In this document: piece by piece, positions 20,136 through 41,413 of the stretch | Layout: every line of letters begins with the position of its first letter | Position numbering within the stretch: position 1 is the stretch's first letter | Source of the DNA: Chloroflexota bacterium | GTDB lineage: Bacteria > Chloroflexota > Ktedonobacteria > Ktedonobacterales > Ktedonobacteraceae | Direction: 5' to 3' | Assembly (NCBI GenBank): GCA_027316975.1 | Contig: DAHVFL010000001.1 | Location: 1 to 42,482, forward strand | DNA: 42,482 nucleotides | The notes under the pieces: generated by a model | Databases searched by the model: none | The model's input: the letters and a program-made list of their open reading frames with translations, nothing else | Told to the model about the DNA's origin: nothing | Program-made: the position numbers and the translations under genes

Positions 20136-21089
20136 TCAAGACAGATTATCCACCAGCCGGCGCGCCATATGCAGCCACTCTTCAGGGTTATCATCGGGAA
20201 TTGAGCAGCCATTCGCGAGGATCAGCCGGCGCCCCTTGACCTGAGAGACGGCCGCCATGATTTCGTTATCGATGGCGGACTCATCGCCATGCGTCAACGG
20301 ACCGCGTTCGTGCAGCCCTCCCATCAGGCATTTTAAGGTCATAGTAGCGGCTTCACTGAGACTTGGCCCGGTCAGGCGATCGCTCCAACTCATAACGGAG
20401 ACAGGATAATCGGTGAAGAGATCAAAATAGAGCTGGTCATCCACTTGTGCCGGGTCAGCATGAACATGCACACTATTCAGCCAGCCGCCAGCGGCGCCTT
20501 GCAAAGCCGCTACATCATAAGGAAGAGCATATTTAACATACTCGTCGCGCGTAAAGTCTGCGGTCGTCGCGCCCATGCACGAGAAAAAGATGCCGCTGGC
20601 TCCCGTCTCAATAGCGCCCTCCATCAGGCGGCGCAAGTTAGCAGCAATCGTACCCAGACCCTCGCCGAAAACCAGCGGATTCTTCCTGCATTCCGCGAGA
20701 GCTTTCTCTTTGCCCATAAAGCGTATGGCATAGGTCATTGGACTAAAGAGCGTCAAGATCAGCGGGTAATCACTTCCCAGTCGCTGGCGCAACAGGCGAA
20801 TGCAGGTAAGCTGCTCGCGAAACATAGGGGTATCCAGGTCAAGGCGAGGCAAGAAACGCATCTGTTCCCCCTCTATCAGAGGATCATCCGGTTGCGGGTA
20901 AGGCAAATCAGGCATAATCTTGACGATATCAAGATTAAATTTCTGCACAAAGAACTCCATCGTCACATCTGCCATGCGCTCGCCCGATCCCGCCGGCTTG
21001 AAATGATGCCAGAAACAGAACGGGACGCGGTCAACGTGTTCTCCCTTGAGCGCGGCGCGCACGCGTTCCCCAGGTGTCATACTACTCAT
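20136..21089 (-). CDS. Uroporphyrinogen-decarboxylase (URO-D) family protein, MtaA/CmuA-like group
   Basis: N-terminal MTPGERVRAALKGEHVDRVPF is typical of URO-D/methylcobamide methyltransferase-like proteins. The ATG at 21089 has an AAAGGAA SD. Confidence 0.65.
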   Translation of the reverse strand: MSSMTPGERVRAALKGEHVDRVPFCFWHHFKPAGSGERMADVTMEFFVQKFNLDIVKIMPDLPYPQPDDPLIEGEQMRFLPRLDLDTPMFREQLTCIRLLRQRLGSDYPLILTLFSPMTYAIRFMGKEKALAECRKNPLVFGEGLGTIAANLRRLMEGAIETGASGIFFSCMGATTADFTRDEYVKYALPYDVAALQGAAGGWLNSVHVHADPAQVDDQLYFDLFTDYPVSVMSWSDRLTGPSLSEAATMTLKCLMGGLHERGPLTHGDESAIDNEIMAAVSQVKGRRLILANGCSIPDDNPEEWLHMARRLVDNLS

Positions 21090-21188
21090 GGATTGTTCCT
21101 TTACTCCTACTATTGCACGTAACGCTGTAGCCAACTCTTCAACGCTTCCACCACAAATTATAACACGTTCAGAACGTCGAAACGGTGA

Positions 21189-21217
21189 TTGTAAACAGGC
21201 CTATTTCCTGCTACAAT
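21189..21217 (+). promoter_or_regulatory. Sigma-70-type promoter for the antitoxin-like gene
   Basis: TTGTAA, a 17-nt spacer, then TACAAT, about 40 nt upstream of the ATG at 21257. Confidence 0.45.
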
Positions 21218-21256
21218 GCCTCATATAGAGCAGCGCTCATACTAACAGGAGAACCT

Positions 21257-21640
21257 ATGAAAAAACTTGATGTAAGCGAATTACGCGAAGGCCGTGAACT
21301 GGTAACACGCATCAATGAGATTCTGCGCCTGGTCAAAGAAGACGGCGAGACAATCGAGATTACTGACAAAGGTAAAATTGTTGCGCATGTCGTGCCGACA
21401 AATATGCCACAAAAGGCTATCGATGACAAACTGGCTGCGTCTTTGAGAGGAATTGATGAGCTAGCAGCTAAAATCGGAGCGCGATGGAAAAGCAATTTGG
21501 ATGCAGTTGAAGCAGTTCGTGATGTAAGAGATGACACCGCGTGGAATGATTTAAAACAAATAGCTACAGAACTTGATCCTTATTGGCCCGAAAATATTGG
21601 TGCAGTTGAAACTATACACGATTGTAGACGAGAAGTGTGA
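21257..21640 (+). CDS. Phd/YefM-type antitoxin-like protein with duplicated C-terminal motif; no partner toxin
   Basis: The N-terminus (LDVSELREGRELVTRINEILRLVKEDGETIEITDKGKIVAHVVP) fits the Phd/YefM fold pattern. The C-terminal half holds two related modules (...ARWKSNLDAVEAVRDVRDD / ...PYWPENIGAVETIHDCRRE). AGGAGAA SD upstream of the ATG at 21257. Confidence 0.6.
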   Translation: MKKLDVSELREGRELVTRINEILRLVKEDGETIEITDKGKIVAHVVPTNMPQKAIDDKLAASLRGIDELAAKIGARWKSNLDAVEAVRDVRDDTAWNDLKQIATELDPYWPENIGAVETIHDCRREV

Positions 21641-21670
21641 GGAGCCGACTCATTAAAGGAGAAAAACTAC

Positions 21671-21892
21671 ATGCCTCTTGATCCCCAGGTCGAAGCCTAC
21701 ATGACTCAGATGGCGGCATTAAACGTACCCCCGCTCAATACATTTACCCCTGAGGCCATTCGCCAGTTAATACAAATGCAGATCGACTCTGGTGCCAGCC
21801 AGTTCGGCGAGCCGGAGCCGATTGCTCACGTTGAAAACCGCGCCATTCCCGGTCCGGCTGGCGACATCCCGGTCAGAATCTATAGTTGCTAA
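21671..21892 (+). pseudogene. 5' fragment of an HSL-family (HGGG/GDSAG) esterase gene, truncated by the insertion
   Basis: MPLDPQVEAYM...NRAIPGPAGDIPVRIYSC* is a typical N-terminus of this esterase family. It stops right before the expected HGGG oxyanion motif, which reappears at 25743. AAAGGAG SD. Confidence 0.8.
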
Positions 21893-21971
21893 GAATCTGG
21901 GCAAAAAGTATCTGCCCAAACCTTCGCTTTCACCTACGCCCGTTGACGAACGAACTGGGCGGGCGGTTGGA

Positions 21972-22220
21972 CTACGGCCAACCGTTTTGTTGTTTCCATG
22001 CGTGATGCCGTTGCATCAGTAAGGCTTTGACGGCTTGCCTGTCTTTGCAAGTGCGCAGTTCCTCATCTCCCCGGCGGTGCTCAATGTTGATGGCAGCATT
22101 AAGATCGGCGTGTGCCTGATAACCGCACACCTGACAGCAAAACGTTTGCTGATCGGGTCGGTTGGCTCGGTCTGGATAATGACATATGCTACACTCTTGC
22201 GAGGAGTAGGCACTTTTGAC
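21972..22220 (-). other. tnpB: In-frame continuation of tnpB after the TGA: zinc ribbon and RuvC-III segment
   Basis: It is in the same frame as 22221-23372 and open for 82 codons to TAG at 21974-21972. Translation: VKSAYSSQECSICHYPDRANRPDQQTFCCQVCGYQAHADLNAAINIEHRR.... Confidence 0.8.
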
Positions 22221-23372
22221 TCACGTGGCGACGACGCCGCGCTTGACAGCATTCCAGGCGATCTGTTCGGGGATGTGCGCGAGGTTGGAGGCACGCATGT
22301 AGGCATTCATGGCGCGTGCCTTGTGCTTCATGGTCGCCACTGAGAGATGTTCATACGCAAACTGCGCACCCTCATGCTCGGCAAAGCACTGGTTGACGGC
22401 GCGGTTGATTTCTTGACGGACGTGCCGGGTGAGACGTTGCCCGCTCTTGCTACTGGTGGAGGGAAGCTTCTCGACATTCTTCTTTTCGAGGCATTTGCGG
22501 AGCTTGGCCTTCCGCCGCCGCTTCTCGCGGTCGCGCTTCTGTCGCTCTCGCAGTTTGCCATGAAACGTGCCGTAGTGCTTGCCTGCACTGGTGGTCAGGA
22601 AGTTGGCGATGCCGACATCCACCCCGACGACCGGGGCTGCCGGTTTGGTCTGCACCAGAACGGTTTCATCATAGCTCAGGGTCAACCACCATCCATTACC
22701 GCGCTTGTTGAGCGTCACACTGGTATTACTGGTCTTGCCCGCAAGCGCCTTGCGATGATAGTCTGCCAGCTTGATGGGAACAAATAACTGTTTGCGGAAG
22801 GCGAGGGTGCTGATCTTGAGCCAGTAGTCAAAGCTAGAGTCTTGCGTGGGTTCAAGCACCGCTACATTGACGTTGGCCTGGATGCAGGTCTGTCGAAGTG
22901 TCGGGATGTTCCATTCGCGCCACACTGGTTCTTTGGCCTCTGCATCCAACGTGCCTTCGGCCTCTTGCTGGTGATAGTCCAGCAGGTCATCCAAATAGTC
23001 TTGATACGCCTGTGTGCGATTGGTGCGCCATGACTTCGCGATGCCTGCCGATTGCTGAATAGCAACCCGGTGCCAGCGTTCGGAGAGCGGCGTTGCAAAG
23101 CAGGTGGCCCGAAACTTGTCGGGGTGCTCATCGGTACAAAAAAGGGTGACATACTGTTGGCAGAGCGATAGGTAGACCTGAGCGAGATCGTCGAGCGCGG
23201 CAAGCTTGCCCGCATTGGTCGCTTCCAGTCGGATATGGGTCACAGCTTTGGTGATGGTCTGCGGTTCGTCTTGCCCGGTGTGACGGTAGTTACGCTGCTT
23301 CATGATCATGGTCCTACTTCGCTCTGTCTCTTTATACCTCTTCTTTGTAAGAGGGGAAGATGCGGTAGTCAT
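22221..23372 (-). CDS. tnpB: TnpB (IS200/IS605-type RNA-guided endonuclease family), reading frame ending at an in-frame TGA before the Zn-ribbon/RuvC-III part
   Basis: RuvC-I is PVVGVDVGIANFLT and RuvC-II is AQFAYEHLSV, with a basic linker KRDREKRRRKAKLRK. The ATG at 23372 lies 18 nt after the preceding ORF's stop, with a GTAGGAG SD overlapping that stop. Confidence 0.8.
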   Translation of the reverse strand: MTTASSPLTKKRYKETERSRTMIMKQRNYRHTGQDEPQTITKAVTHIRLEATNAGKLAALDDLAQVYLSLCQQYVTLFCTDEHPDKFRATCFATPLSERWHRVAIQQSAGIAKSWRTNRTQAYQDYLDDLLDYHQQEAEGTLDAEAKEPVWREWNIPTLRQTCIQANVNVAVLEPTQDSSFDYWLKISTLAFRKQLFVPIKLADYHRKALAGKTSNTSVTLNKRGNGWWLTLSYDETVLVQTKPAAPVVGVDVGIANFLTTSAGKHYGTFHGKLRERQKRDREKRRRKAKLRKCLEKKNVEKLPSTSSKSGQRLTRHVRQEINRAVNQCFAEHEGAQFAYEHLSVATMKHKARAMNAYMRASNLAHIPEQIAWNAVKRGVVAT

Positions 23373-23390
23373 CCCCTCTTACTCCTACAT

Positions 23391-23861
23391 CTACGAGACG
23401 CGCTGCATGGGACGCGACAATAGAGGTGTCCTCTGCTGCTCACACCAGTTCAGACATACAAACTCCCATTCTGGCAGATACCGCTCGACACTGTCATAGG
23501 AGGTGTACCCCTCGGCGCGAATGCGCTTGATGAGGGTCTTGGCCTCCTCGATATCCGGGAAGCACGCGAACTTCCCCCGCAGTTTGATGCACCCCTGTTT
23601 GCTATGAATACAGCATCTTCCATCGAGGGTGCTGTAGATCGTGTAGCCCCGGTAGTACTCATAGAACAGGGTATAGATGGTGTTCTCGTTACCGATGATC
23701 GGGTCGGTCTCGTGCAGCGTCAACCGCGCCCGCTCGACCAACTCAAGGGGCCGTGCGACCGTCGAGGGTGCGCGATGCTCTCTGACAGGGGCAGGCGCGG
23801 GTTGCCTGCGCCTGCGGTTCTTTGGCAGGCGATGCGGGTTCCCGTACTTCCTACGCTGCAT
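23391..23861 (-). CDS. 156-aa protein of unknown function with an Arg-rich N-terminus and a Cys-containing C-domain
   Basis: The ATG at 23861 has a GAAGGAG SD and lies 11 nt inside the end of the sigma-like ORF. The N-terminus is MQRRKYGNPHRLPKNRRRRQPAPAP. The C-domain is YRGYTIYSTLDGRCCIHSKQGCIKLRGKFACFPDIEEAK.... I recognise no family. Confidence 0.55.
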   Translation of the reverse strand: MQRRKYGNPHRLPKNRRRRQPAPAPVREHRAPSTVARPLELVERARLTLHETDPIIGNENTIYTLFYEYYRGYTIYSTLDGRCCIHSKQGCIKLRGKFACFPDIEEAKTLIKRIRAEGYTSYDSVERYLPEWEFVCLNWCEQQRTPLLSRPMQRVS

Positions 23862-24996
23862 GGCTCGTACTCCTTCGTGCTTTGAGGAAATCGATGGCCG
23901 TTTTCTTCGCGACGCCTGCCTCTTTTGAAAGCCTCGGACTGGTGACTCGCACACCCTGCGCTTCCAGTCGCGTACAGACTGTCTCAAGCTTCTGCTGGCG
24001 TTGTCGCGCTCTGCCCTCTTTGGGGGTCTCGCTGCGGTGCAGGCGCAGGAACATCAGCGCGTGGTCAATGCTGATTCCTACCTCTTTTGCCAGCCGGCGT
24101 CCGGTGACGATCACACCCTGCCCTTGCAGGTCGAGACATCCCTGCAACAGCGCGGCTTCCTGCTCCGGGGTAATGGTGTAGGTATTGTGGGCATCAGGGT
24201 AGAGAATGTAGGGTTTGCCGTTCCTTGTGCCGAGCGTTGCCTTGCCAAGAGCCAGCGCTCTCAACCGGGCGATGGCATCCCGTTCGGTGGTCAGGATGAG
24301 CCTGCGGTCAAGCCCTAAGAGACGGGCAATCTCGTTGGTGGTGTGCCTGCGCTCGTTGTCATCGGAAAGGCCGTAGCGCAAGCGGAAAATGGCCTGGGCG
24401 CGTGGGGAGAGATAGGAGAGCAGTGTGTCCACCTGGGCGCGTTGCTGCGGGTCACGCTCCGGCGCGGCCTCGGTGGGCAACAGAGGTGTGGCCTGCGGTT
24501 CTTCCAGGTCGTCGGTGTCGAACCATTCCATTTGCTCATCCAGACTGAGCAGGTGATCGAGCGCATCGATCAGGTTGGCGTCTCCCCGTTCGCGCGCCCG
24601 TGTCCATACCCCGTGGTTGATTTTGACCAGACCATCGTTGATGCTGGCACCTTTGACCCTCCCGCGCAGCCAGGCCGCAAGGTAGCTGGTCAGGTCTTCA
24701 ATCTGGGTGAGATCGCTGCGGATAATCACCTCGACCACCGTCAGGTTGGCCTCCCCGATAAGGTCAGGTAGATCGCGGTGATAGCGTGACTTGGGACAGA
24801 GATCAATGGCGAAGTACTTGGCGAGCGACAGGTAGCTCTCGATCAGTTGGTGCTTGATTTGAGTCGGATTGTCGGCTGTTGGAAGACCGGTGATGAGGTG
24901 CCGACGTTGCTCTTCCGAAAGGCGCGGCAGGCGTTTCAGGTCAGCGTAGTAGTACGCTTGATCGTAGGTGGTGTAGTTGGTGATGGTTTGTGTCAT
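23851..24996 (-). CDS. Divergent sigma-70-family-like protein with two extra C-terminal HTH-like modules
   Basis: Region-2-like: LIESYLSLAKYFA...DLIGEANLTVVEVI...LTSYLAAWLRGRV. Region-4-like: LSPRAQAIFRLRYGLSDDNERRHTTNEIARLLGLDRRLILTTERDAIARLR. Repeated tail: VTGRRLAKEVGISIDHALMFLR and VTSPRLSKEAGVAKKTAIDFLK. GGAAGGGA SD. Confidence 0.6.
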   Translation of the reverse strand: MTQTITNYTTYDQAYYYADLKRLPRLSEEQRRHLITGLPTADNPTQIKHQLIESYLSLAKYFAIDLCPKSRYHRDLPDLIGEANLTVVEVIIRSDLTQIEDLTSYLAAWLRGRVKGASINDGLVKINHGVWTRARERGDANLIDALDHLLSLDEQMEWFDTDDLEEPQATPLLPTEAAPERDPQQRAQVDTLLSYLSPRAQAIFRLRYGLSDDNERRHTTNEIARLLGLDRRLILTTERDAIARLRALALGKATLGTRNGKPYILYPDAHNTYTITPEQEAALLQGCLDLQGQGVIVTGRRLAKEVGISIDHALMFLRLHRSETPKEGRARQRQQKLETVCTRLEAQGVRVTSPRLSKEAGVAKKTAIDFLKARRSTSHAA

Positions 24997-25122: not shown

Positions 25123-25165
25123 CTGACCTTGCCATGTACTAGACGGCAAGGTCAGTTTCTTTTCG
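25123..25165 (+). terminator. Plus-strand intrinsic-terminator-like hairpin inside the leader of the sigma-like operon
   Basis: CTGACCTTGCC-(11 nt)-GGCAAGGTCAG followed by TTTCTTTTCG. No plus-strand gene lies upstream. On the minus strand it has no U-tail. Confidence 0.4.
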
Positions 25166-25220
25166 TGTCTTCTTCTCTTTATCACCTCCTTAATATCATC
25201 CTTTGGCATACTCTGATAGG

Positions 25221-25249
25221 AGTATAAAATAATCTTCAAGAAAAGTCAA
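25221..25249 (-). promoter_or_regulatory. Candidate promoter of the sigma-like / small ORF / tnpB operon
   Basis: On the minus strand: TTGACT (25249-25244), a 17-nt spacer, then TATACT (25226-25221). This implies a leader of about 215 nt. Confidence 0.4.
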
Positions 25250-25367
25250 CTCTATTAGTGCTTTATAATCTGTTTTACATATTTAACAATATTTTTCATA
25301 CGTGAGTATGCAGAAATATCTATCTTGATGCTATGTTGGGAAGGCTAGCACATGGATAGGAAAGGAG

Positions 25368-25396
25368 TTGACCGCAGGGATCATACATACTATAAT
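25368..25396 (+). promoter_or_regulatory. Near-consensus sigma-70 promoter of the HTH gene
   Basis: TTGACC, a 17-nt spacer, then TATAAT, about 30 nt upstream of the start codon. Confidence 0.55.
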
Positions 25397-25425
25397 AGGC
25401 CCATTACTGTTAAGAGAGGGTGCAT

Positions 25426-25629
25426 ATGCCACAGCCACAAGAAAAGCTGCTTACCGTTAAGCAGGTTGCCGATATAATGAGCGTGGATGAAAAGACTATC
25501 CGTAGCTGGATACAGAGGGGTGATTTAAGGGCGGTCAATATAGGTCGTCTACGTCCTGAATATCGTATCCGGCCTACCGACCTTGATGAATTTATCTCAC
25601 ACAGACAAACAGATCGATCTGATAATTAA
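25426..25629 (+). CDS. Small excisionase-family (MerR-like) helix-turn-helix DNA-binding protein
   Basis: [34 protein letters not shown]...[12 protein letters not shown] matches the Xis/AlpA-type HTH pattern. GTG 25420 is an alternative start. Confidence 0.7.
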
Positions 25630-25654
25630 TTATTTTGCTCAATCAAACTGTAAA

Positions 25655-25731
25655 AAGCTCTGCGGCTAACACCTGTCAAAGTTGTTGCACTTCTCTCTGC
25701 TTTATTTTAAGGGGTGTTAGCCGCAGAGCTT
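25655..25731. repeat. Terminal hairpin of the insertion (19-bp perfect stem, 39-nt loop)
   Basis: AAGCTCTGCGGCTAACACC (25655-25673) pairs with GGTGTTAGCCGCAGAGCTT (25713-25731). The right arm ends 2-5 nt before esterase coding sequence resumes. Confidence 0.85.
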
Positions 25732-25733
25732 CT

Positions 25734-26432
25734 TATTTCTTTCATGGAGGTGGTTGGGTGATCTGTAATCTCGACACCCACGATGGTCTTTGCCGCAGCC
25801 TGGCGAACGGAACACATTGTATCGTCGTATCGGTAGACTACCGGCTCGCGCCCGAACACAAATTTCCTGCCGCGCCCGAAGATTGCTACGCCGCGACTTC
25901 GTGGGTAGCCGAAAACGCACCTCGGTTCAACGGCGACCCCGCACGCATAGCTGTTGGCGGGGATAGCGCGGGCGGCAATCTCGCAGCCGTTATCTCACGG
26001 ATGGCGCGCGATAAGGGAGGCCCGGCGTTGAGCTTTCAGCTACTCATCTATCCCGCCACCGTCTTTACCATAAGATACCCTTCCGTGGAAGAAAATGGCG
26101 AAGGCTATGGCTTGACCGAGCAGGATATGACCTGGTTCACGAACCATTACTTGAATAACGCGGAAGAGAAGCAGAACCCTCTCGCGTCCCCGCTGCTGGC
26201 CGCTGATCTGAGTAGATTACCTCCCGCGCTCGCCATTACCGCCGAGTACGACCCGCTCAGAGACGAAGGCGAGATGTACGGTCAGAAACTGAAAGATGCT
26301 GGCGTACCCGTCACCATCACCCGCTACGATGGTATGACGCACGGCTTTGTAGGTATGCCCTACGATAAGGGCAGGCAAGCGATTGCCGAATCCTGCGTCG
26401 CGCTGCGAGCAGCTTTTGCTCTCAAAACGTGA
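25734..26432 (+). pseudogene. 3' part of the split HSL-family esterase gene
   Basis: [17 protein letters not shown] (oxyanion HGGG), [13 protein letters not shown] (nucleophile elbow GDSAG), and a late DPLRDEG...HGF (Asp/His of the triad). The upstream part of ORF 25635 is element sequence. Confidence 0.8.
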
Positions 26433-41044: not shown

Positions 41045-41413
41045 GGGGATGTCGGGTTTCGACAGACGAGCAGGTTGATGAATTGCAGGTCGAGGTGTCG
41101 GTATGCGCTCTCGTAAAACAACCGACAAACAACAAATGCCAAACCGGCATACAACTACGCTCTCGCTGCCTAATAACCAGTGATGCGTCGTCCCCCTGGC
41201 TTTTTTCTGTGGGGTCAGGACCGGGCGTCGAAAACACGGGATGCTATGGTGAGTACCGCCTTCTAACCGCCATTTAAGACCAGAGGGCCAGCGCCGACGA
41301 ATCCTGTCGATGGGAGTCCGAGACGTTTAAGAAAAATCATCGACTAAACTTGTAGCATATTCATCGATAGGTTTGTTTGGACAGGGGGTTCGACTCCCCC
41401 TCATCTCCACCAC
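41045..41413 (+). ncRNA. ssrA: tmRNA (transfer-messenger RNA)
   Basis: The 5' end GGGGATGTCGGGTTTCGACAG pairs with the 3' end ...GGACAGGGGGTTCGACTCCCCCTCATCTCCACCA (T-arm, acceptor, CCA). The internal tag frame ends ...GCC AAA CCG GCA TAC AAC TAC GCT CTC GCT GCC TAA TAA (...AKPAYNYALAA**). The resume codon is not determined. Confidence 0.92.

Follow-up and report, generated by a model that had tools for sequence, protein, structure and literature searches.

A multi-copy TnpB-omegaRNA element with a probable recent nonsense mutation in one copy, from a Ktedonobacteria-like (Chloroflexota) genome

Introduction

TldRs are TnpB-derived, nuclease-dead proteins, many of which are C-terminally truncated (Wiegand et al., PMC10705468). 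They form conserved clades with mutated or truncated active sites, are fixed beside non-transposon genes, and have guides that match a regulatory target (PMC10705468). In the dCas12f-sigmaE system of Bacteroidota, dCas12f is C-terminally shortened and nuclease-dead (Hoffmann et al., PMC12259090). This system is Cas12f-derived, tightly linked to rpoE genes of the TIGR02985 type, and nuclease-dead as a clade.

Here we describe a tnpB gene with an early in-frame TGA in a stretch of 42,482 nucleotides (contig DAHVFL010000001.1 of assembly GCA_027316975.1; hereafter, the window). The 360-aa product of this gene would lack the C-terminal zinc-finger/RuvC segment, like TldR (PMC10705468). The TnpB/Cas12f-family gene also adjoins a sigma-70/ECF-type gene, as in the Sigma-TnpB/dCas12f-sigmaE systems of Bacteroidota (Altae-Tran et al., PMC10691335; PMC12259090). 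In spite of these likenesses, the TGA probably arose very recently, as a loss-of-function nonsense mutation that hit a single copy of the multi-copy TnpB-omegaRNA element of a Ktedonobacteria-like (Chloroflexota) genome.

Results

The interrupted tnpB gene and its product

The minus-strand frame at 21972-23372 translates as ...AWNAVKRGVVAT, a stop, and VKSAYSSQECSICHYPDRANRPDQQTFCCQVCGYQAHADLNAAINIEH...NGWP, followed by the final stop (Table 1). The initial annotation had reported a TGA at 22223-22221 with 82 open codons behind it, and translation of the minus strand confirmed this. All the motifs that it had listed are present as claimed. The body encodes the RuvC-I Asp (VGVDVGI) and the RuvC-II Glu (FAYEHLS), and the tail encodes YSSQEC, the zinc ribbon CSIC...CQVC (TNB domain) and the RuvC-III Asp in HADLNAAINI. 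The tail is untranslated unless the TGA is read through. The 383 aa proposed there for the truncated product needs correction: in the homologues and in the gene call P0116 the start codon is ATG 23303 (MKQRN...), not 23372, and 360 aa is the more likely length.

Table 1. Features of the tnpB locus and of the insertion that carries it (window coordinates)
Feature	Position	Strand	Remarks
Esterase N-terminal fragment, Abhydrolase_3 (HSL-type)	21671..21892	+	gene resumes at ~25731-26432 (+)
Guide-equivalent flank AGATTCTGACCGGGATGTCGCC	21860..21881	-	abuts the right end on its 3' side; antisense to the split esterase gene
3' part of omegaRNA-like scaffold and right end	21882..21984	-	three covarying hairpins; alignment A2
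tnpB tail	21972..22220	-	82 codons (22220-21975) and TAG 21974-21972
TGA stop, in frame	22221..22223	-	codon 361 from ATG 23303; private to the window copy
tnpB body, P0116	22224..23303	-	360 codons; product ending at the TGA
Conserved tnpB leader with hairpin GTAAGAGGGGA...TCCCCTCTTAC	23340..23411	-	candidate left end
ORF156, basic N-terminus	23391..23861	-	start overlaps the end of the sigma-like gene
Sigma-70-family protein, 381 aa, regions 2 and 4, C-terminal extension	23851..24996	-	profile matches
HTH_17 gene, small, excisionase/MerR-like	25420..25629	+	divergent from the sigma-like gene; HTH_17 E 1.7e-13
Inverted repeat, 17 bp, gctctgcggctaacacc / ggtgttagccgcagagc	25659..25729		left edge of the insertion

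By our own rough estimate, 82 stop-free codons are expected in about 4% of random frames at this base composition. Homology, not stop-free length, is decisive in showing that the open tail is more than chance. The read-through product aligns end to end with 443-aa homologues, and it belongs to TnpB according to the NCBIfam profile NF040570 (guided_TnpB; 105.5 bits, cut-off 100). Pfam PF07282 (Cas12f1-like_TNB) matches residues 369-430 of this product (E 4.7e-15, 55.9 bits, cut-off 26.3), and the match region spans the TGA. The match with Pfam PF01385 (OrfB_IS605; 27.4 bits) is under the cut-off of 30.5. Both Cas12f (8j12; E 2e-12) and ISDra2 TnpB (8bf8/8exa; E 3e-6) align with the tail over their zinc-finger/RuvC-III regions. 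The truncation point lies just upstream of the segment that matches the solved Cas12f and TnpB structures.

D231, E320 and D402 are invariant across a 25-sequence alignment of TnpB relatives (A1). In the window copy, D and E are encoded before the TGA and the third D after it, leaving the 360-aa product without a full D-E-D; only the ancestral or read-through form carries the complete triad in one polypeptide. The zinc ribbon, encoded only past the TGA, is likewise absent from the 360-aa product. Lacking both this ribbon and the third RuvC Asp, the truncated protein would therefore be unable to cleave DNA. By analogy with truncated TnpB and Cas12f proteins that bind DNA, such a loss of nuclease activity would be no proof that all function is lost.

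The stop codon among relatives and in an independent assembly

We found no stop codon anywhere in the tail across 87 DNA copies from 85 loci. At the stop site, these copies have AGA (28), AGG (28), AAA (10), CGT (4), AAG (4), TCG (4), CGG (3), AGC (3), TGT (2) and TTG (1). AGA is the codon mostly used by the nearest relatives, and one substitution turns it into TGA. Among 119 protein homologues (78-88% identity, almost all of 443 aa), the residue in this column is R in 85, K in 19, S in 11, and L, G, E or Q in one each. The initial annotation had proposed a comparison of this codon across copies, stating that a sense codon in all others and a stop in this one alone would make it a simple pseudogene. 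This is what we observe: none of about 200 relatives has the stop, and the window copy is unique. Lesions at differing sites are found elsewhere among 88 copies, with two stops in L058, one stop in L084 and a frameshift before RuvC-III in L090.

A near-identical sister protein of 443 aa (P0121) falls in the same 90% cluster as the window copy. The window read-through product differs from P0121 only by S>I, stop>R and H>R (99.5% identity). At the tail difference, the window retains the H of the family consensus, and S215 (about 22727) is a missense change private to the window copy. No second TnpB copy was found within the window.

The TnpB family is under purifying selection. The dN/dS of the segment after the TGA, another comparison proposed earlier, is about 0.1, the same level as the body (0.08-0.14 for the body; 0.03-0.13 for the tail, which was compared with 12 loci). 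Three of the 360 body residues and one of the 82 tail residues are private to the window copy, with no excess of private substitutions in the tail. The earlier description of the tail as free of further degradation is thus accurate. This absence of decay probably reflects recency and is no evidence of function; the tail would still look intact because there has been too little time for further decay.

An error in the sequence itself is an unlikely explanation but the foremost of the alternatives. The true codon would then be Arg (AGA or CGA), and the TGA would be an artefact of base calling, or of assembling or polishing a metagenome-assembled genome across a repeated element. Two contigs of Logan, L086 and L087 (SRR12886061), are 100% identical to the window and end inside the element, at 22959 and 21958, as would be expected of repeated sequence. 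These ends leave the TGA site at 22223 outside both contigs. However, this independent assembly agrees at every base with both flanks of the insertion and with 1.3 kb of the insertion itself. Repeats do breed consensus errors and chimeric contigs, a 99.5%-identical P0121 exists, and the site is one base away from Arg; yet a consensus of mixed copies would still require reads bearing T at this position, and the private missense change S215 points to a copy that is really distinct. Short-read consensus sequences seldom contain single-base substitutions, which also counts against an error.

The insertion, the omegaRNA and the element ends

The tnpB gene is carried by an insertion of about 3.85 kb that splits an esterase gene and whose cargo consists of tnpB, ORF156, the sigma-like gene and HTH_17. 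The joined esterase fragments align as one protein with Est8 (PDB 4ypv; E 2.6e-85), and the Abhydrolase_3 match of the esterase has an E of 5.7e-81. Both insertion junctions are reproduced in L086 and L087. About 12-14 esterase codons (~39 nt) are missing between VRIY and YFHGGGW at the left junction, which rules out reading a TAM from the split esterase. The inverted repeat at the left edge (self-match 25651-25673 / 25713-25735) abuts the point where the esterase frame resumes.

At the other end, the conserved sequence terminates at ...TTAGCAACTAT (21882) and is variable beyond. In the 75-sequence alignment A2, right-end conservation stops at ...GCAACTAT (window 21882), and homology breaks sharply at 21880-21882 in nearly all loci. 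RNAalifold on A2 (75 loci) gave 25 pairs, 15 of them with compensatory changes, and the first of the three hairpins extends across the tnpB stop codon. As judged from the alignment, this locus appears to have the structured omegaRNA typical of TnpB, which runs over the 3' end of the gene to the transposon right end, with the guide beside it. An Rfam scan of the window matched only tmRNA, with no omegaRNA family and no recoding element. Directly after ACTAT the loci all differ in sequence, and the window has the esterase N-terminal fragment there. By analogy with the known TnpB/omegaRNA architecture, this flank would serve as the guide.

The left end is less sharply marked. The conserved tnpB leader also occurs in loci without ORF156 and the sigma-like gene (L005, L008, L020, L041, L049, L046, L006, L061 and L062), and it is our candidate for the left end of a minimal unit, about 1.53 kb long. 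Its hairpin is conserved in a subset of loci only. A universal left end was rejected, given that the 260 nt upstream of the ATG, aligned for 72 loci, show no family-wide conservation. Pairs of loci at 88-92% identity have in common only a stretch that starts at about the ATG and runs on for 92-99 nt beyond the stop codon. Many TnpB copies form the right end of larger units whose upstream genes vary, and the copies occur in many unrelated genomic contexts. No TnpA (Y1 or serine) was found near any of 85+ loci, and no TnpA-like family was among the neighbours that recur at 72 non-redundant loci. Elements that carry TnpB alone and are mobilised in trans are common.

The upstream genes

The sigma-like protein matches TIGR02937 (53.4 bits, cut-off 42.9) and Sigma70_r4 (24.3, cut-off 24.1). 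Its family comprises 212 homologues, and TnpB lies downstream in three of six sampled contexts. In the others, we found a large serine recombinase, an IS21-like transposase, or no TnpB, which rules out an obligate sigma-TnpB pair. Seen from the TnpB side, the sigma-like gene or its remnants are upstream in ~16 of ~72 non-redundant loci, all in one sub-clade. The TnpBs downstream of sigma homologues belong to unrelated lineages.

The sigma-like gene has a constant partner in ORF156, for which the gene calls on contig L086 of Logan likewise give 156 aa. ORF156 matched no Pfam family. Homologues lie upstream of tnpB in L010, L027, L043, L033 and L007, and remnants in six further loci. The spacer at the HTH_17 gene is AT-rich (GC 26-48% over 25200-25700) and has divergent promoter-like sites at 25368-25396 (+) and 25249-25221 (-). 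HTH_17 homologues are found divergently upstream of tnpB in 12 loci.

The initial annotation had coupled a truncated DNA binder to the sigma-like protein. The 360-aa protein would then be functional, as a nascent TldR/dCas12f-like, nuclease-dead, RNA-guided DNA binder, possibly acting with its sigma-like neighbour. Truncated TldRs and sigma-E-associated dCas12f do still bind DNA by an RNA guide (PMC10705468, PMC12259090). A sigma-70-family gene does lie upstream on the same strand, and TnpB follows this family in three of six contexts. The sigma-linked copy L090 independently lost RuvC-III through its frameshift. However, the other sigma-linked TnpBs that were inspected (L010/L088 and L092) are full length with D-E-D intact, apart from the ambiguously aligned L091, which has a D at the position matching the catalytic E. 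The truncation is confined to one copy, and beyond the stop the tail shows no released or altered constraint. D-E-D is also kept in every aligned family member, and the truncation is therefore very probably no evolved feature. Guides differ by locus and are the local flank, in the style of a mobile element, with no conserved regulatory target. The sigma-like gene also stands beside a serine recombinase or an IS21-like transposase, or without TnpB. We therefore consider a functional binder very improbable.

Discussion

The evidence is best explained by a recent nonsense mutation. A single base change would have converted an Arg codon, most likely an ancestral AGA and possibly CGA, into TGA. Residue 360 would then be the last one translated, and the Y-S-S-Q motif would lie just beyond it. 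Besides the short time for decay, the intact look of the tail has a further reason in that its final codons, at least the last few, lie within the conserved omegaRNA hairpin across the stop codon of tnpB. P0121 could supply TnpB in trans to the omegaRNA of the window copy, which appears to be still intact, and such complementation would relax selection on the window ORF. The three explanations offered in the initial annotation have thus fared differently: the recent nonsense mutation is favoured by the private stop and the Arg of P0121, while read-through and the truncated binder are not borne out.

Programmed read-through or recoding of the UGA, by a near-cognate tRNA or as selenocysteine, would give a long nuclease-competent and a short isoform. 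It is the least credible of these readings: basal UGA read-through does occur at low levels in bacteria and the downstream frame is open and fully homologous, but a programmed signal would be conserved and the stop is in none of ~200 relatives, the 86 nt that surround and follow the UGA are folded no more stably than shuffled sequences (z = -0.24), without any SECIS-like or stimulatory hairpin, the orthologues have Arg, Lys or Ser in this position and not Cys or Trp, no tRNA-Sec gene was found in the window, and long TGA-free ORFs across the window indicate that this genome uses TGA as an ordinary stop. The same long ORFs, together with R/K/S and not W/G in the relatives, rule out an alternative genetic code; the stop-codon count used against such a code is circular by construction and carries little weight.

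The window tnpB would thus be a redundant transposon gene that is starting to die, seen before a second lesion, and the finding by itself matters little. An open frame past a stop is no evidence of recoding when a near-identical intact paralogue exists. The context is perhaps more useful. In Ktedonobacteria-like genomes, the position directly upstream of TnpB is repeatedly taken by a sigma-70-family gene with its constant small partner ORF. The TnpBs of this recurrent unit are predicted to be nuclease-intact and belong to unrelated lineages, and a divergent small HTH gene usually lies further upstream. In the window, the sigma-ORF156-TnpB unit sits inside the mobile insertion. A bolder reading, to which we give very little credence, takes the stop as a first step of exaptation, with a 360-aa omegaRNA/DNA binder acting with the sigma-70-like protein and ORF156. 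More broadly, and with as little credence, the Ktedonobacteria sigma-ORF156-TnpB cassette would be a working RNA-guided transcription or targeting module distinct from the dCas12f-sigmaE of Bacteroidota.

Comparison with known systems

The closest counterpart of this element is the TnpB-omegaRNA of the IS200/IS605 type, represented by ISDra2 TnpB. The two share the guided_TnpB and TNB matches, the RuvC D-E-D and CxxC...CxxC, and there is a sequence match to the structures 8bf8/8exa/8h1j. Further features in common with known TnpB-omegaRNA elements are a covarying RNA over the 3' end of the ORF, a sharp right end, a locus-specific guide, and copies in many genomic contexts. Unlike ISDra2-type TnpB, the window copy loses its zinc finger and RuvC-III to the early stop. 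The loci also differ from the IS200/IS605 type: no TnpA was found nearby, the left end is poorly defined, and many copies have variable upstream genes.

The likeness to TldR does not extend beyond the missing C-terminus. The window truncation is a one-off in an otherwise intact clade and its guide is the local flank, so that neither the clade-wide RuvC loss nor the guide to a conserved regulatory target that mark TldRs is found here. Programmed UGA recoding, marked by a conserved UGA and a 3' stimulatory or SECIS structure, does not describe this locus either.

The sigma-ORF156-TnpB association differs from the published dCas12f-sigmaE system. It occurs in a Ktedonobacteria-like host, its sigma protein of 381 aa has an extra C-terminal region, and it has a constant partner of 156 aa. 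The relatives of the window TnpB are predicted to be nuclease-intact, in contrast to the Bacteroidota proteins, and the linkage is facultative (three of six contexts) and involves unrelated TnpB lineages. The tight, clade-wide linkage of a nuclease-dead Cas12f/TnpB with an ECF sigma-E is thus not seen. The window copy instead resembles ordinary IS pseudogenisation, with a single private lesion in a multi-copy family, an intact near-identical copy, and other copies broken elsewhere. There is no substantive difference from such a case, and the window copy is unusual only in its recency, caught with no second lesion yet.

The interrupted tnpB gene

As the initial annotation had proposed, an in-frame TGA splits the minus-strand tnpB gene into a TnpB body and an intact zinc-ribbon/RuvC-III tail. 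The translation carries VGVDVGI and FAYEHLS, with the catalytic D and E, before the TGA and YSSQEC, CSIC...CQVC and HADLNAAINI after it. The read-through product, in which the TGA is ignored, scores 105.5 bits against NCBIfam guided_TnpB (cut-off 100), and its Pfam Cas12f1-like_TNB match (residues 369-430, E 4.7e-15) straddles the stop. The tail aligns with the zinc-finger/RuvC-III regions of the solved Cas12f 8j12 (E 2e-12) and of ISDra2 TnpB (8bf8/8exa, E 3e-6). By these matches, the read-through product is a TnpB. The terminated product, first described as 383 aa long, more likely has 360 aa (P0116), because relatives start at a downstream ATG.

We searched 5.8 billion proteins, found 1,934 relatives and examined the best 119 at the TGA column. 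These 119 show 78-88% identity, are nearly all 443 aa long and have no stop at the site; their named sources are Ktedonobacteraceae/Chloroflexota metagenome-assembled genomes. The column holds R in 85, K in 19, S in 11 and L, G, E and Q in one each. The corresponding codon in 87 DNA copies (85 loci) is AGA (28), AGG (28), AAA (10), CGT, AAG or TCG (4 each), CGG or AGC (3 each), TGT (2) or TTG (1), and the whole tail is free of stops in all of these copies. Thus, the TGA is not conserved at the homologous codon. The closest relatives mainly use AGA, so one substitution would be enough to produce TGA. The second member of the window TnpB's own 90% cluster is P0121 (443 aa, NCBI, on a 36-kb contig). 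It differs from the window's read-through product at three positions only: one in the body (S>I), the stop itself (stop>Arg) and one in the tail (H>R); at the last of these the window retains the family consensus.

The initial annotation had suggested calculating the post-TGA dN/dS; measured against 12 of the nearest loci (dS near 1), it is 0.03-0.13, as low as in the body (0.08-0.14). Over its whole length, the TnpB family has thus long been evolving as a functional protein. Residues absent from every homologue number 3/360 in the body and 1/82 in the tail; S215 is the only one of these four missing from P0121. The low tail dN/dS and the single private residue argue that the tail has undergone neither decay nor a shift in constraint, as would be expected if the lesion is very young. 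Three other copies in a set of 88 relatives are also broken, at different sites: L058 has two stops, L084 has one, and L090 is frameshifted after the second CxxC but before the RuvC-III motif (L090:6220-7520), so that its 423-aa product lacks the third catalytic Asp. Breakage at such differing places is a pattern of sporadic decay. L090 is a sigma-linked, independently damaged copy; its locus is that of L088/L010, taken from another sample.

Of the explanations offered initially, a very recent nonsense mutation is probably the right one, given that the TGA is private, P0121 has Arg at the site and the tail is undecayed. The main rival, a base-call error, is rather unlikely. Two Logan contigs, L086 (26271-22959) and L087 (about 20803-21958), come from an independent assembly of SRR12886061; they are identical to the window over these spans and reproduce both insertion junctions and flanks, but both end inside the tnpB element and neither reaches 22223. 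These breaks indicate that the sample contains the element interior more than once; the existence of P0121 is consistent with this. It is improbable that the truncated TnpB would be an evolved RNA-guided DNA binder coupled to the sigma-like protein: TldR (TnpB-like nuclease-dead repressor) and dCas12f are genuine precedents, but nothing in our analysis marks the truncation as an evolved state. Programmed UGA read-through is more improbable still, as shuffled sequences fold just as well as the 86 nt at and beyond the UGA (z = -0.24), the window contains no tRNA-Sec gene, and orthologues have a basic residue or Ser at this position, not Cys. Long TGA-free ORFs throughout the window speak against a genetic code with TGA as sense. 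An Rfam search of the window returned only a tmRNA gene (41045-41412, +; 169 bits), with the ARAGORN tag peptide AKPAYNYALAA.

An insertion in an esterase gene

About 3.85 kb is an insertion in an esterase gene, because the fragments on both sides, when joined, give a single-protein alignment with Est8 4ypv (E 2.6e-85). About 12-14 esterase codons are missing between VRIY and YFHGGGW, which means that the insertion site is not clean at its left junction. The cargo comprises tnpB, ORF156 (encoding a 156-aa protein), a sigma-70-family gene and, in an AT-rich spacer, a divergent HTH_17 gene. Promoter-like sites face both directions in this spacer (25368-25396, +; 25249-25221, -). Another 12 loci have HTH_17 homologues in divergent orientation upstream of tnpB, and some of these homologues carry a fused GIY-YIG domain. 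The 17-bp inverted repeat is unlike the tnpB leader hairpin and the right-end hairpins, and could be a terminator or an element end. Just upstream of the esterase fragment lies a PhdYefM-like antitoxin ORF (21257-21640, +; PF02604 E 7.7e-5, below gathering score).

Features of the insertion and the interrupted tnpB gene
Feature	Position	Strand	Remark
Esterase N-terminal fragment, HSL-type (Abhydrolase_3)	21671-21892	+	split gene
tnpB tail	82 open codons after TGA to TAG 21974-21972	-	same frame as body
tnpB ORF	23372 to TGA 22223-22221	-	translation
tnpB start in relatives	ATG at 23303	-	homologue comparison
tnpB leader with covarying hairpin GTAAGAGGGGA...TCCCCTCTTAC	23340-23411; hairpin about 23380-23340	-	upstream of tnpB ATG
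AT-rich spacer	25160-25730		down to 26% GC vs about 57% around
HTH_17 gene (excisionase/MerR-like), 69 aa	in spacer 25160-25730		divergent from sigma-like gene
Inverted repeat, perfect 17 bp, 37-nt spacer	25659-25729		left insertion edge, abuts resumed esterase frame
Esterase remainder	about 25731-26432	+	split gene

The homology shared with all other loci stops abruptly at window 21880-21882. An alignment of 75 sequences shows stronger conservation over the 92 nt that follow the tnpB stop codon than over the coding sequence; this stretch ends in ...TTAGCAACTAT, and what comes next is locus-specific. RNAalifold on this alignment gives 25 pairs, 15 with compensatory changes, and predicts a hairpin GGTTGGCCGTAGTCCAACC spanning the tnpB stop codon. 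This 3' segment is the right end and a putative scaffold of the omegaRNA type, for which AGATTCTGACCGGGATGTCGCC, antisense to the esterase gene, would be the guide. The leader hairpin is common to loci without the sigma-like gene and ORF156, whose last codons extend into the leader. This hairpin is a candidate for either a regulatory element or a left end, in which case the minimal unit would measure 1.53 kb. TnpA was not observed in the neighbourhood of any TnpB locus.

The sigma-like gene and its downstream slot

The TGA itself is an ordinary finding, and the recurring sigma-ORF156-TnpB arrangement is the more interesting lead. The 381-aa upstream protein belongs to the sigma-70 family (TIGR02937, 53.4 vs cut-off 42.9); its gene and ORF156 together occupy 23391-24996 on the minus strand. 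The window, L010, L027, L043, L007 and L033 have a complete pair with ORF156 upstream of tnpB, in one and the same order, and ten further loci have remnants there; with remnants counted, the sigma-like gene and its partner occur directly upstream of tnpB in about 16 TnpB loci out of about 72. All the loci bearing the pair or its remnants fall within one sub-clade of the TnpB tree, mixed with loci without it.

We found 212 homologues of the sigma-like protein and sampled six genomic contexts. A TnpB follows the sigma gene and small ORF in three, and in two of these it is unrelated to the window's or only 28% identical; the slot in the others holds a large serine recombinase, an IS21-like transposase or nothing (one each). 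Over the window, L088, L091, L092, L093, L094 and L096, identity among the sigma proteins remains at 45-68%, while the TnpBs come from lineages that are not related to one another (<=28% identity). The small partner has 131-156 aa and no known domain. Because the slot content varies over the six contexts, the constant unit is the sigma gene plus the small ORF, in most cases with a small divergent HTH gene on its upstream side; TnpB often fills the downstream slot but is facultative there.

Recurrent neighbour families of the window's TnpB clade are all upstream, on the element side, and none downstream (L018:1490-3304, L056, L006, L017 and others), a hint that larger, variable units have tnpB-omegaRNA as their right end. 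They comprise a Baseplate_J-like 556-aa protein (14 loci), unknown proteins of 212 aa (13) and 113 aa (8), a GIY-YIG+HTH_17 protein (8) and a 268-aa HTH_17 protein (7).

Guides vary from locus to locus among the sigma-linked loci, and L091 has a D at the position aligned to the catalytic E. The Bacteroidota Sigma-TnpB/dCas12f-sigmaE systems are Cas12f-derived, nuclease-dead as a clade and tightly linked to rpoE (PMC10691335, PMC12259090). The window's arrangement differs from these, in that its linkage is facultative and the RuvC triad D-E-D is kept in sigma-linked TnpBs, both in the window's own family (L010/L088) and in L092.
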